This document shows positions 1-16,036 of a stretch of DNA of 16,036 nt, piece by piece. Numbering within the stretch: the stretch's first letter is position 1; every line of letters starts with the position of its first letter. Source of the DNA: a virus; IMG/VR virus record IMGVR_UViG_3300012985_000282; one strand, written 5' to 3'. The notes below the pieces were generated by a model. That model was not told the DNA's origin. It made no database searches and saw only the letters and a list, made by a program, of their open reading frames with translations. A program made the position numbers and the translations under genes.

Positions 1-192
1 AACAAAGAACAATGAATCGTGGTGTAACACGAAGGTCCAACCGTCGTTACGAGCCCAGATGACCAGCACGATGCACCAGTCGTCGGTCAATCGAGACGCA
101 TCGTTGATGGGTTCGAAGACGTCAGGTCGCTCGTACAACGAGGTGTCAGGACCGATCCAGACGATGTCACCAGGGCACACGCGATCGTCCAT
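1..192 (-). CDS. PGD-GW small-domain paralog, N-terminal portion only (3' end lies beyond window edge)
   Basis: Minus-strand ATG at 190-192 reads MDDRVCPGDIVWIGPDTSLYERPDVFEPINDASRLTDDWCIVLVIWARNDGWTFVLHH... to the window edge. It has the family N-motif (CPGDIVW) and a hydrophobic LVIW core. It is missing from the ORF track because it runs off the window. There is a 9-nt gap to the stop of the upstream gene at 202. Confidence 0.5.
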   Translation of the reverse strand, partial: MDDRVCPGDIVWIGPDTSLYERPDVFEPINDASRLTDDWCIVLVIWARNDGWTFVLHHDSLFFV

Positions 193-201
193 GTTGGATA
201 A

Positions 202-531
202 CTACCCGACGATGCGTAACCAACCTCTTTTTTCGATGCCAAAGACAAAGACCAACCTCTGTAAGCGATGGTGTAACACGTACGTGTACGTGTTCACTTC
301 GTTAACGAACGAACCCGCTCGAACCTCGTGGCTGATGACTGTCATCATGTCACCGTACTTGAACCTGATGAAACCGTGCTCGACGCTGCCGTAGGGTAAC
401 CCAACCCGGTTGTCAACGTCTTCATTTTCTGTTATCGTCGTGACTAACGTACCCGGAACGTATCGCCCGATGTTCAGTAGCGCTTTCGATAGGTCATTTT
501 CGCTCATCGACCTTGCCGATGACGAATCCAA
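202..531 (-). CDS. PGD-GW small-domain paralog (alternative start at Met9, 505-507)
   Basis: 109-aa ORF with YVPGTLVTTITEN near the N-terminus, MMTVISHEV mid strand and LVFVFGIEKRGWLRIVG at the C-terminus. It overlaps the stop of the upstream membrane-protein gene. Confidence 0.55.
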   Translation of the reverse strand: MDSSSARSMSENDLSKALLNIGRYVPGTLVTTITENEDVDNRVGLPYGSVEHGFIRFKYGDMMTVISHEVRAGSFVNEVNTYTYVLHHRLQRLVFVFGIEKRGWLRIVG

Positions 532-751
532 TCGTCCTGCCCATCAACCAAAAGACAGTCGCGACAAGGATTCCCATGTCTGTCATGGGCCACAACACTG
601 CCGCGCCAAAGATGATGGTGGGATCGAGCAGGATCCTAGCCTCACCCTTGTAGAAGCGCTTGAAGAAACGAGCGCTCAGGATGAGGACGACCACGTTGAT
701 GAGGACTGGAACCCAGTATTGCTTTGGGTGCTGCATGAAGTACCACAACAT
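494..751 (-). CDS. small hydrophobic membrane protein (2-3 predicted TM helices), unknown function
   Basis: 85-aa ORF MLWYFMQHPKQYWVPVLINVVVLILSARFFKRFYKGEARILLDPTIIFGAAVLWPMTDMGILVATVFWLMGRTIGFVIGKVDERK. It contains long hydrophobic stretches and starts 4 nt after the stop of the upstream paralog. Confidence 0.5.
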   Translation of the reverse strand: MLWYFMQHPKQYWVPVLINVVVLILSARFFKRFYKGEARILLDPTIIFGAAVLWPMTDMGILVATVFWLMGRTIGFVIGKVDERK

Positions 752-755
752 CCAG

Positions 756-1034
756 TCATCCTACCTTGTGACTGCTTGACGGTACACCTAACAGCGACGC
801 GATGGGACACCACCAGATCCTGTCACGAACGAACACTATCACACCGTGTTTGGTCAGGCGAGCGACGATGAAAACGAGGACGTTGGTTCTTGGCGTCAGC
901 ATGCGACAGCCCACCCCGAGCTCACGGCTGCCGTCAGGAGGCCAGGACAGCGATGACGAGCCAGAGTGCCACGTCGCCAGGCCTCCAGGCGCGAACGAAC
1001 CAGACGTCGTGTCAATCACCACATCCACCACCAC
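756..1034 (-). CDS. PGD-GW small-domain paralog (divergent, APGG instead of PGD)
   Basis: FAPGGLATWHSG N-motif, VLVFIVARL strand and VIVFVRDRIWWCPIASL C-motif. It overlaps the upstream gene by 19 nt. Confidence 0.45.
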   Translation of the reverse strand: MVVDVVIDTTSGSFAPGGLATWHSGSSSLSWPPDGSRELGVGCRMLTPRTNVLVFIVARLTKHGVIVFVRDRIWWCPIASLLGVPSSSHKVG

Positions 1035-1264
1035 AAGCCACGGTTAGGAACCAGGACGATCGCTCCGCGTGCCTTTGAGTTAGGAAAGCAAGCGACGATC
1101 AGGAGGCGGGTGTTCGCCTTGACGGTGCAGACCTCAGCGACGACCAGGTCGTCGATCAACACCTCGTCTGGATTGTAGAAGAACGGGCGGGACAACGTGG
1201 CATCGTGTGGCCAGTGAAGCGTGTCACCCGGCCTGGCGTATACCTCACGTTCCCAACTCGCCAT
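1016..1264 (-). CDS. PGD-GW small-domain paralog
   Basis: YARPGDTLHWPHD N-motif, RLLIVACFP strand and AIVLVPNRGLWWWMW C-terminus. Confidence 0.5.
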   Translation of the reverse strand: MASWEREVYARPGDTLHWPHDATLSRPFFYNPDEVLIDDLVVAEVCTVKANTRLLIVACFPNSKARGAIVLVPNRGLWWWMW

Positions 1265-1535
1265 CTGTAAACCTATTCATGACGGTGACAATGAAACCTC
1301 GAGAGACGGAATACACGATGAAGGTCGATGCGTACGATGCTATCTCTTCGCCGAACTCGTCCTTCCCATCGATCCTAGCCAGCACGAACAACGGTCGATT
1401 CGCAGTGATGATGCTTTGATGTTTTTCATCGTACGTCCTAAATATCGTCTCTGGTGCGACAACGACGTCACCTGGACACACGTCGGGCCAGGCAATCGAA
1501 AAGGGCACGAGCACGTGAAACTTTGGAGGTCTCAC
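1245..1535 (-). CDS. PGD-GW small-domain paralog
   Basis: VCPGDVVVAPE N-motif, PLFVLARIDGKDEFGEE region and FIVYSVSRGFIVTV. Its ATG overlaps the upstream stop as ATGA (1532-1535). Confidence 0.5.
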   Translation of the reverse strand: MRPPKFHVLVPFSIAWPDVCPGDVVVAPETIFRTYDEKHQSIITANRPLFVLARIDGKDEFGEEIASYASTFIVYSVSRGFIVTVMNRFTDGELGT

Positions 1536-14581: not shown

Positions 14582-14791
14582 TCACGCCTTCACCAAGCCT
14601 TTGACGTTGACGTAGCCCACGACGTCGGAGCCTAAGACGCAAACGTAGCTAGACTCTATCGAAACAGAGATGACGAACAACATCTGTCCTTCCTCGACAG
14701 AGCTCGGTACGCCGCTCGGGTGCCCGCCGTCAGCGTCCCAGATCGCCCAGACGCCTTCTTTGACGACCATGATGTCACCCGGCGAGATCAT
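14582..14791 (-). CDS. PGD-GW small-domain paralog (minimal 69-aa form)
   Basis: MISPGDIMVVKEGVWAIW ... VEEGQMLFVISVSIESSYVCVLGSDVVGYVNVKGLV. There is an ATGA overlap at 14788-14791. Confidence 0.65.
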   Translation of the reverse strand: MISPGDIMVVKEGVWAIWDADGGHPSGVPSSVEEGQMLFVISVSIESSYVCVLGSDVVGYVNVKGLVKA

Positions 14792-15012
14792 GTCGGACTC
14801 ACTAACGCTCGCAGGTTGAGGTAACCCAAGCGCTCTCGCGTGATGACGAGCGCGTAATTCGTGTCATGGTCGACAGAGATGACAAGCACCAAGTCGCCCT
14901 TGCTGACCATGGAGGTCACCTCCCGACGCTTGGCTCCTGCCTCTCCGTCATCCCAGACGTTCCAAAGACCGTTCAGAACGCTAGCGAGCTGTCCAGGTGT
15001 TATGTCAGACAT
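14788..15012 (-). CDS. PGD-GW small-domain paralog (minimal form)
   Basis: MSDITPGQLASVLNGLWNVW ... SKGDLVLVISVDHDTNYALVITRERLGYLNLRAL. Confidence 0.65.
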   Translation of the reverse strand: MSDITPGQLASVLNGLWNVWDDGEAGAKRREVTSMVSKGDLVLVISVDHDTNYALVITRERLGYLNLRALVSPT

Positions 15013-15031
15013 TGTTAACGATGAATGACAT

Positions 15032-15265
15032 CTAGATGGGCCTCAGGACCTTGATGTTGACAAATCCCAAGAGACCGCGAACGAGACAGCGTGCGTACAC
15101 CATGCCAGCATATGACTCACCTTCACATGCGATGATTAGCAACACGTCGTCCTGGTCGAGCCAGGCCACACGCTGGGCTTCGCCCTCGTAAGAGTGATTC
15201 CACATCGACCAGGTTTCTCCGCTGTCAATGACGGCAACGTCGCCAGGGACGACCGACCGCGTCAT
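15032..15265 (-). CDS. PGD-GW small-domain paralog (minimal form)
   Basis: MTRSVVPGDVAVIDSGETWSMW ... DQDDVLLIIACEGESYAGMVYARCLVRGLLGFVNIKVL. There is an ATGA overlap at 15262-15265. Confidence 0.65.
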   Translation of the reverse strand: MTRSVVPGDVAVIDSGETWSMWNHSYEGEAQRVAWLDQDDVLLIIACEGESYAGMVYARCLVRGLLGFVNIKVLRPI

Positions 15266-15483
15266 GAGACCCTCTCACAACAACCTTGGTGAACGTAACC
15301 CGTCATCCCTCTGATGAGAACGTAGAGCTGACCGTATCCGATCCTAGATGAAACATCGATGATAAGAGCTAACTCACCCGTCTCAAGACCGACGATGGCC
15401 TTCTGTTCAAAAGGAGAACATGGAGGTTCCCACAGGCTGTAGTTGGCCTCGCTTATCTGAATGCAATCGCCTGGAACGTACAT
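15262..15483 (-). CDS. PGD-GW small-domain paralog (minimal form)
   Basis: MYVPGDCIQISEANYSLW ... ETGELALIIDVSSRIGYGQLYVLIRGMTGYVHQ. There is a TGATG stop/start overlap at 15481-15485. Confidence 0.6.
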   Translation of the reverse strand: MYVPGDCIQISEANYSLWEPPCSPFEQKAIVGLETGELALIIDVSSRIGYGQLYVLIRGMTGYVHQGCCERVS

Positions 15484-15743
15484 CAGTTGATCTTTTGTAG
15501 CTTGTAAACGTCAACGAATCCGACCCAACCCGTCTTGGAACAGATAACGACGGCCCACCTTTGGTGGTAACGCCCGGCATGGGTGCCAGAAACATAGACG
15601 ATCAATAACGTGTCACGAATGTTTAGGTCCATGAGCCATTGGCCGCCTGGACCTGGATCGATCCACAAGGAAAGACCGTGACAGGTAGCACAAGCGAACG
15701 CACCAGGAAACAAGGTGCTCGGGTCCGTCATCGGGTCCATCAT
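15483..15743 (-). CDS. PGD-GW small-domain paralog
   Basis: LFPGAFACATCHGLSLW ... DTLLIVYVSGTHAGRYHQRWAVVICSKTGWVGFVDVYKL. There is an ATGA overlap at 15740-15743. Confidence 0.6.
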   Translation of the reverse strand: MMDPMTDPSTLFPGAFACATCHGLSLWIDPGPGGQWLMDLNIRDTLLIVYVSGTHAGRYHQRWAVVICSKTGWVGFVDVYKLQKIN

Positions 15744-16012
15744 ACCTTGTTTTCTGCAACGTTGACACAGTAGGCGTACTCGAGGTTAACGTAACCCACC
15801 CGATTCGTGAGCGAAGAGATCACGAACGCAGATCTCTTCGAGTGCCTGACAGCGACGGCGACGACTAACAACATGTCAGAAAACGAGAGCTCGCAGACCA
15901 GGTCACTGGTCTGTGTGGTTTCATAGTAAGGTCGGTCCCACAGGCCGATCTTATTGAGGCGTGGCCTGATGACGTCGCCTGGGTTCAGCCTGCGTATCTC
16001 TGAAGGTTCCAT
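15740..16012 (-). CDS. PGD-GW small-domain paralog (start probably at MEPSEIRRLNPGDVI; ORF-track TTG start at 16033)
   Basis: LNPGDVIRPRLNKIGLW ... DMLLVVAVAVRHSKRSAFVISSLTNRVGYVNLEY. The Met at 16010-16012 overlaps as TGATG a stop that closes another frame running in from the window edge. Confidence 0.55.
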   Translation of the reverse strand: MEPSEIRRLNPGDVIRPRLNKIGLWDRPYYETTQTSDLVCELSFSDMLLVVAVAVRHSKRSAFVISSLTNRVGYVNLEYAYCVNVAENKV

Positions 16013-16036
16013 CAGAAGGCCTTGTACAGGCAATGA
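16012..16036 (-). CDS. 3' end of a further upstream gene (probably another paralog) entering from beyond the window
   Basis: Minus-strand frame from 16035 reads ...HCLYKAF-stop, with the TGA at 16012-16014 overlapping the ATG at 16010-16012. This is the same coupling geometry as the rest of the array. Confidence 0.25.

Follow-up and report, generated by a model that had tools for sequence, protein, structure and literature searches.

Gene pairs coupled by termination–reinitiation (Huber et al. 2019, PMC6728339; PMC10666635; review PMC12548453) are co-directional and share stop/start overlaps of 4 nt or 1 nt; a Shine–Dalgarno-like motif often lies within the upstream gene, and the downstream start does not need an open initiation region. 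Across cellular genomes, overlap typically involves ~15% of co-directional pairs and reaches ~30% at most (PMC6728339). Here, we analyze a 16,036-nt stretch of viral DNA (IMG/VR record IMGVR_UViG_3300012985_000282; "the window" denotes this whole stretch), whose unusual element is a tandem expansion of small proteins with a predicted bacterial-SH3 (SH3b) fold around a vault-like/SPFH gene pair of huge phages. The window has the co-directional order and the 4-nt and 1-nt overlaps of coupled pairs, and its overlapped starts are likewise predicted to lack an open initiation region. It differs in degree: 59% of its junctions are 4-nt or 1-nt overlaps and 73% overlap at all, against the usual ~15%, and GTGA is almost as frequent as ATGA. 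It differs also in that coupling is here something we infer. The overlap mechanism is thus of an ordinary, known kind used at exceptional density, and the array itself is the interesting part.

Two phage systems offer parallels to the array. The early and accessory small-gene arrays of large phages such as T4 likewise form long co-directional runs of mostly uncharacterised small genes with frequent short overlaps, and one window gene matches the T4_Y16D family; unlike the present array, those of T4 do not consist of one paralog family, and only 11 of 84 junctions in annotated T4 are 4-nt overlaps. Bacillus phage G carries ~35 zinc-ribbon copies as a lineage-specific expansion (Iyer et al. 2021, PMC7824862), which resembles the window in having dozens of copies of one small domain in one lineage, possibly with binding or regulatory roles. 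The window differs in encoding a predicted SH3b-like barrel, in being strictly tandem with overlapping junctions, and in flanking a vault-like/SPFH pair. Our literature searches turned up no account of tandem SH3-like arrays in any phage.

Homologues of the major vault protein (MVP) have already been reported from viruses or phages and from bacteria (bioRxiv 10.1101/2023.11.10.566534; 10.1101/872010). The vault-like protein described here shares with them the MVP shoulder and vault repeats and a tailed-phage-like element. It differs in belonging to soil or environmental huge phages rather than gut phages, in having an SPFH partner and a conserved terminator-like hairpin downstream, and in being embedded in SH3-like arrays.

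On balance we favor, with moderate confidence, a reading in which the small genes form an SH3b-fold paralog array whose overlaps arose by in-register recombination and are maintained by translational coupling, with transcription in segments and with no assembly of the products implied. The array expands and contracts through unequal recombination, whole gene-plus-junction units being copied or deleted in register. An RTGA overlap (R, A or G), in which each base serves a stop or a start, would be hard to lose. A terminating ribosome would reinitiate on the next cistron, structured starts with modest Shine–Dalgarno sequences would thereby still be translated on long transcripts, and continuous ribosome cover would shield the RNA from polarity and decay. 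Hairpin terminators or attenuators, together with the leader of the vault-like gene, would divide the region into at least three expression segments.

Stop/start overlaps across the window

Long open reading frames (ORFs) lie nearly all on the minus strand of the window, and the gene model is a tiling of that strand into 42 genes, every one of them so oriented, with 41 junctions inside the window and one at its edge (16012). Window coordinates below refer to minus-strand features unless stated otherwise, and single junction coordinates give the first base of the downstream start codon. Among the 41 internal junctions, 22 are at −4, that is, 4-nt overlaps (12 ATGA and 10 GTGA), 2 are at −1, 6 overlap further (−8 to −44), and 11 are spaced by 1–87 nt, so that genes overlap by some length at 30 junctions. 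The edge junction is a third −1 overlap and brings the count at −4 or −1 to 25 of 42. An independent gene caller applied to the same stretch of the source contigs gave 19 junctions at −4, 2 at −1, 7 longer overlaps, and 13 spaced junctions; over the whole 82-gene co-directional run of the source contig, it placed 35 at −4 and 6 at −1.

The original prediction, made from the letters and a list of ORFs, had named 19 sites at which a start codon overlaps the preceding stop. All 19 are real stop/start overlaps; no strand had been given, and they lie on the minus strand, the plus strand reading TCAT or TCAC. Ten of the 16 sites labelled ATGA carry that sequence (1777–1780, 2312–2315, 2668–2671, 3533–3536, 12879–12882, 13151–13154, 14316–14319, 14788–14791, 15262–15265, and 15740–15743), whereas the other six are GTGA (1532–1535, 2007–2010, 3219–3222, 10024–10027, 11000–11003, and 13697–13700). 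Both TGATG sites were borne out as 1-nt overlaps, at 15481–15485 (junction 15483) and, on the window edge, at 16010–16014. The candidate GTGA at 11555–11558 is plausible, with an N terminus that fits the paralog family described below, although the database gene caller favors GTG 11597. Scanning every junction for RTGA or TGATG, as had been proposed, added six overlaps to the list: GTGA at 14582–14585, 12196–12199, and 1016–1019, ATGA at 9403–9406 and 9200–9203, and TGATG at 8998–9002 (junction 9000). The gene downstream of junction 9406 lies outside the paralog family, as do both genes meeting at 9203 and at 3536. At 2671 and 2315, a −4 junction is retained at the orthologous position of L007 (L numbers denote contigs in our comparison).

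Start codons were judged by the candidate starts available upstream of a PG motif conserved in the family. The overlap codon is the sole start upstream of this motif at 15483, 15265, 14791, 3222, and 2010, and at 14319, 12199, 11558, 2671, 2315, and 1780 the alternatives would only lengthen the overlap. The expectation that overlaps pin down starts better than longest-ORF calls proved right at eight junctions (16012, 14319, 13154, 12199, 9000, 2671, 2315, and 1780): all eight overlap starts there differ from the longest-ORF starts and are backed both by the family alignment and by the independent gene caller. Nine starts are ambiguous (15743, 14585, 13700, 12882, 11003, 10027, 1535, 1019, and 3536). 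At 15743, for example, ATG also occurs at 15740 and 15731, and the gene caller takes 15731; at 14585 it favors ATG 14564; at 10027 an ATG at −1 is also possible; and GTG alternatives lie downstream of 1535 and, in some number, upstream of 1019.

These nine junctions, and the other starts that the database caller picked at 15743, 14585, and 11558, speak for a gene-calling artifact, in which the true starts lie further downstream and RTGA is just the first in-frame start past the upstream stop. We consider such an artifact very unlikely, given the five sole starts and the six with only longer-overlap alternatives. Third-codon-position composition, moreover, predicts A or G before 44% of TGA stops, but 30 of 34 genes have one of these bases there (P = 1.3e-7), and the independent caller concurs at 19 of the 22 −4 junctions.

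That the overlaps are denser than chance, as originally claimed, is confirmed by the 22 of 41 junctions that fall at −4 exactly (P ~ 5e-36 if junctions were placed uniformly across the range observed), a clustering incompatible with any smooth spacing distribution. The frame relation between neighboring genes is also non-uniform (P = 4.5e-4). TGA ends 34 of 42 genes, an excess that falls short of significance when set against trinucleotide composition (P = 0.065). For comparison across genomes, one crude ORF-tiling method was applied to all sequences. By this method, the −4 class reaches 53% in the window and 41–60% in the related arrays L008, L014, and L015, against 17% in T4, 8–9% in two 50-kb pieces of the huge phage LR756500, and 10–17% in L010, L017, and L019. 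The density is unusual even among phages, and it is a property of these tandem small-gene arrays.

A diverged paralog family and its turnover

At least 31 of the 42 genes are ancient and highly diverged tandem paralogs, each confidently predicted to encode one stand-alone SH3b-fold domain. BLAST connects only small clusters of the small proteins, and the subfamilies so defined group physically. An iterative hidden Markov model search brings together 29 genes of the window, none of the shuffled decoys scoring below 1e-3; a later iterated profile finds 31 genes over the window's range and, on the 40.7-kb contig, 47. All 33 sequences of the family alignment (A1) share PG[DQ]hV..W..LVIA..G.hG[WYF], the PG motif standing 2–36 residues from the N terminus. 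The family proteins are single-domain and 69–138 aa long, begin M-x(2-36)-PGD, and show, by inspection, no hydrophobic leader or evident signal peptide. AlphaFold2, supplied with the paralogs as alignment, returned a confident all-beta model (pLDDT 91.4, pTM 0.79).

Sequence databases offered little by way of known relatives. Searching the small proteins against Pfam, PHROGs, and PDB sequences yielded no significant family; one of 33 members matches Pfam SH3_2 (E = 0.0076), below the cut-off, and the best PDB profile-search E was 0.17. A word-indexed homologue search returned six proteins, all self or close relatives, and an exhaustive profile search of 1.84 billion representatives returned 228 relatives. 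The best 150 of these 228 are nearly all single domains of 70–125 aa, with four two-domain fusions and some long multi-repeat proteins. The multi-repeat matches were set aside as likely false friends, the one inspected (P0020) having FG-GAP-like repeats. The family proteins stand alone, with no cell-wall hydrolase attachment or catalytic partner domain found in them; in this, and in having no significant Pfam SH3 or PDB match, they differ from the SH3b cell-wall-binding domains of endolysins, autolysins, and NlpC/P60 hydrolases.

The same paralog profile detects 1–8 copies in L007–L016 and 0 in the distant relatives L017–L022. By inspection, L015 and L008 carry comparable arrays packed with overlaps in the same way; their proteins, 70–90 aa long with GDLV as an N-terminal motif, look like sister subfamilies. 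With many copies in one lineage, few in its relatives, and recombinational turnover, the family is a lineage-specific tandem expansion.

The turnover is seen between strains. The L003 gene at 7385–7645 is an exact chimera of the L004 genes at 2662–2910 and 4705–4962, with the crossover inside the conserved GQLGFVRSDL coding segment and within a 51-nt identical stretch, and the two strains differ, ~2.4 kb upstream of the window end, by a nine-gene, ~2-kb indel. Paralogs thus recombine unequally by homology, which adds and removes gene-plus-junction units in register; the junctions are therefore not independent events and are inherited in blocks. The window itself holds no DNA repeats longer than 29 nt, hence no recent duplication inside it. 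A fixed-length duplication unit was considered and rejected, domain-to-domain spacing ranging from 35 to 170 nt.

Such turnover invites a passive account, in which compaction, block duplication, and mutational lock-in of RTGA left the overlaps as a by-product and each cistron is initiated independently, without coupling. It draws support from the copying and deletion of junctions in register by paralog recombination, from the physical clustering of subfamilies, and from Shine–Dalgarno-like sequences that are equally strong at overlapped and spaced starts. We argue that inheritance by paralog duplication alone is not the whole story, because the −4 register is held despite variable lengths around the junction (tail 2–21 aa, leader 2–36 aa), because non-paralog junctions overlap similarly and cannot all be accounted for by duplication of paralogs, and because arrays of other subfamilies (L008, L014, and L015) are equally dense. 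Overlapped starts, furthermore, do not have the open initiation region of spaced starts, as detailed below. We accord the passive account a modest chance.

The 4-nt overlap also places the downstream frame at −1, and four relatives (P0007, P0017, P0025, and P0076) are fusions of two domains that have a Met in frame where the domains meet, both of which would suit programmed −1 frameshifting or read-through at the junctions, with fused multi-SH3 proteins as the true products. We give this proposal almost no credence: the A-rich junction 12882, the only one inspected (by eye), does not fit an in-frame X_XXY_YYZ; stops are conserved between strains, with no single-nucleotide polymorphisms (SNPs) in the overlaps; and fusions are rare, numbering four among the best 150 of 228 relatives. 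In the fusions, the retained Met stands right before the second PGD motif. Comparison of these sequences suggests that separate and fused SH3b-like states interconvert.

Translation and transcription of the arrays

Predicted RNA structure separates the two classes of start. Unpaired probability over −12..+5 is 0.51 at spaced starts against 0.40 for background random coding RNA (P = 0.002); at overlapped starts it is 0.36, lower than at spaced starts (P = 0.002) and no more open than background. Structured overlapped starts beside open spaced starts form the pattern predicted by termination–reinitiation, an indirect sign that makes translational coupling plausible. A perfect 9-bp hairpin (12860–12884; dG −12.1 kcal/mol) encloses the ATGA junction at 12882; the same hairpin scored as terminator-like on the plus strand. 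Overlapped starts carry a Shine–Dalgarno-like signal (mean dG −4.4 vs. −2.6 for background, P = 1e-4) of modest strength, with 32% at or below −6 kcal/mol.

The original prediction went further and held that the overlaps enforce near-stoichiometric co-translation of neighboring paralogs, as would make sense if these co-assemble. In its full form, such a model has the neighbors made from one transcript in near-equimolar amounts because they join in a hetero-oligomer. The single orientation of all genes, the overlap of 30 of 41 junctions, and the coupling-like structure signature at overlapped starts agree with that model, and overlapping unidirectional pairs often encode complex subunits, according to one source (PMC10666635). 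This part of the prediction nonetheless finds no support where it makes paralogs special: overlaps are about equally common, at 6 of 13 junctions involving unrelated genes and at 18 of 28 paralog junctions (Fisher P = 0.32). A nine-gene copy-number difference between strains is hard to square with a fixed stoichiometry, and measured reinitiation efficiencies are highly variable (PMC6728339). Conserved terminator-like hairpins after the vault-like and SPFH genes, and the vault-like gene's own conserved leader, likewise speak against one transcript. Domains with the SH3b fold are typically binding modules that act as monomers, and we saw no sign of hetero-oligomers. Co-assembly is unsupported and in our view improbable; the overlaps amount to packing and coupling and are not evidence of stoichiometric paralog assembly.

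For transcription, the notion of one long polycistron survives insofar as all genes are co-directional. A single uniform transcript is doubtful, however, in view of the terminator-like hairpins and the vault-like leader, because of which the region would fall into three or more expression segments. The two hairpins occupy the two largest gaps, on the coding strand and directly past the stops of the vault-like and SPFH genes; strong hairpins are found only in these gaps and none between overlapped genes. The hairpin after the vault-like gene (5697–5726) has a 13-bp GC-rich stem followed by UUUCAUCUUUU, the GC-rich hairpin plus U-tract at a gene 3′ end that defines an intrinsic terminator. Its position recurs in nearly all relatives with unrelated sequence, and AT-rich relatives have clean U-tracts there, as do the distant L017 and L018. 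The hairpin after the SPFH gene (3755–3787), terminator-like or an attenuator, has a 13-bp GC-rich stem with a weak U-tract and is conserved in L007 and L012. The A/G-rich leader that the vault-like gene has to itself is conserved in six lineages.

Several findings weigh against our preferred reading of a recombining, coupled array transcribed in segments. Block inheritance was seen just outside the window, nine overlap starts are ambiguous, and the accessibility contrast comes from a small sample of 24 overlapped and 11 spaced starts. Shine–Dalgarno sequences are no weaker at overlapped than at spaced starts (P = 0.73), which leaves room for independent initiation at the former. The post-SPFH hairpin has a poor U-tract, and a standard promoter would not fit between either hairpin and the gene that follows, so transcription probably reads through with attenuation, and some transcripts may extend across the whole region. 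Coupling and termination alike are, finally, deductions from sequence.

Promoter searches returned candidates of limited strength. A sigma-70 scan of the window gave 7 matches against 5.4 expected, no enrichment. The sequence GTGGTAGGGT (11877–11886), lying in a gap of 36 nt, is a weak candidate for an extended −10 element, its one match equaling chance expectation, and the same holds for the one match of GTGGTANNNT. Exactly two copies of AATAGAGTA occur, both in gaps (8495–8503 and 8734–8742), a result equaled in 31 of 200 shuffles and so not significant; they sit upstream of the DUF4314 and vault-like genes, as a candidate phage promoter element. In several relatives, an ATAG(A/T) motif found ~75 nt ahead of the vault-like gene is another such candidate, not statistically significant, and GATGTCATT, with two exact copies in gaps, is suggestive only. 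The motif GATAGGATGAG (or GGTAGGATGA) stands directly upstream of three non-family genes (3719–3735, 752–765, and L002:20866-20884), two of which encode small membrane-like proteins; GATAGGATGAG/GGTAGGATGA may be a shared ribosome-binding or regulatory element. In gaps upstream of the array on L003 (2529–2584 and 3639–3698), GTGGTATACT and GTGGTATTGT resemble extended −10 elements, each followed by an AAGGA-type ribosome-binding site, and are likely real promoters.

Genomic setting and significance

Relatives of the vault-like protein (37–70% identity) are encoded on viral contigs of IMG/VR as long as 359 kb and by two uncultured phages, one of 462 kb and one of 735 kb, which points to a huge (jumbo) phage, with the window as part of its accessory region. 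Compared by megablast with phage records, the whole window matched none of them, and the source contigs, present in a public collection, are metagenomic (ENA ERZ27311758, ERZ27311759, and ERZ27311764; JGI 3300012987). Synonymous SNPs predominate between strains in the small genes (52 vs. 20 nonsynonymous, and 22 vs. 7 in a second comparison of near-identical strains), which marks the small ORFs as real genes; no SNP falls in an overlap in either comparison.

Both small-gene arrays flank the vault-like and SPFH genes. The upstream array (8770–16036), which extends past the window, has 26 small co-directional genes of 67–127 aa, 23 of them SH3b-like paralogs, and the downstream array (202–3718) has 13 small genes, of which 10 are family or likely family members. 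Its non-family genes are two for small membrane-like proteins (3533–3718 and 494–751) and one for a 105-aa helical protein (3219–3536). Array DNA diverges far faster than the vault-like/SPFH core.

The vault-like gene (5745–8441), preceded by a 57-nt gap, encodes 898 aa with matches to Pfam MVP_shoulder (3e-30; 105 bits, cut-off 25), Vault_3 (4e-9; 36.9 bits, cut-off 28.8), and Band_7; these shoulder and vault-repeat domain matches place the predicted product in the major vault protein family. The SPFH/Band-7 gene (3806–5659) encodes 617 aa with a hydrophobic N terminus (Pfam Band_7, 3.7e-28; phrog_200). An SPFH neighbor of the vault-like gene is retained only in the closest relatives, L007 and L012.

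Among the remaining genes, a DUF4314 small protein (8499–8726; Pfam 2.9e-10) has a gap on either side. An Arg-rich 82-aa alternative ORF (8515–8763) overlaps its gene in another frame; Pfam and the gene caller alike favor the DUF4314 frame, and this ORF is probably spurious. The non-family gene resembling T4_Y16D and phrog_839 (10024–10311) starts 44 nt inside the preceding paralog gene, which makes the longest overlap in the window (10268–10311), and has a strong AGGAG Shine–Dalgarno sequence. Downstream of the window, the contig encodes a short match to the T4 Gp23 capsid family and a Peptidase_M24 protein (L002:20498-20854 and 22369-22697), a synteny kept in L007 (L007:11393-11809). Just ahead of the small-gene run on L003 lies a 306-nt GC-rich non-coding gap (L003:4476-4781) with a tRNA T-arm-like GGTTCGAATCC...CCA segment; neither ARAGORN, run on L003 for tRNAs, nor Rfam, run on L003 and the window, returned anything, here or elsewhere.

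Ribosomes might traverse tens of cistrons by serial termination–reinitiation, as along beads on a message, and so release a diversified library of free SH3b modules. These would work with the vault-like/SPFH cage proteins, for instance by serving as adaptors for cargo or by binding a range of targets in the host, and would be reshuffled by paralog recombination. We offer this as an unlikely elaboration of the preferred array reading; if it holds, phages would have their own equivalent of a variable repertoire of binding domains.

At the level of annotation, a very high density of RTGA overlaps belongs to these tandem small-gene arrays and does not speak for a protein complex, and the overlap rule fixes starts dependably for dozens of orphan genes whose longest-ORF calls are wrong. 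For the phages themselves, a huge-phage clade has, on the predicted fold, expanded a sequence-orphan, stand-alone SH3b-fold protein to some 50 tandem copies around a vault-like/SPFH pair, with the copies still recombining, which provides a concrete target for learning the role of such jumbo-phage expansions.

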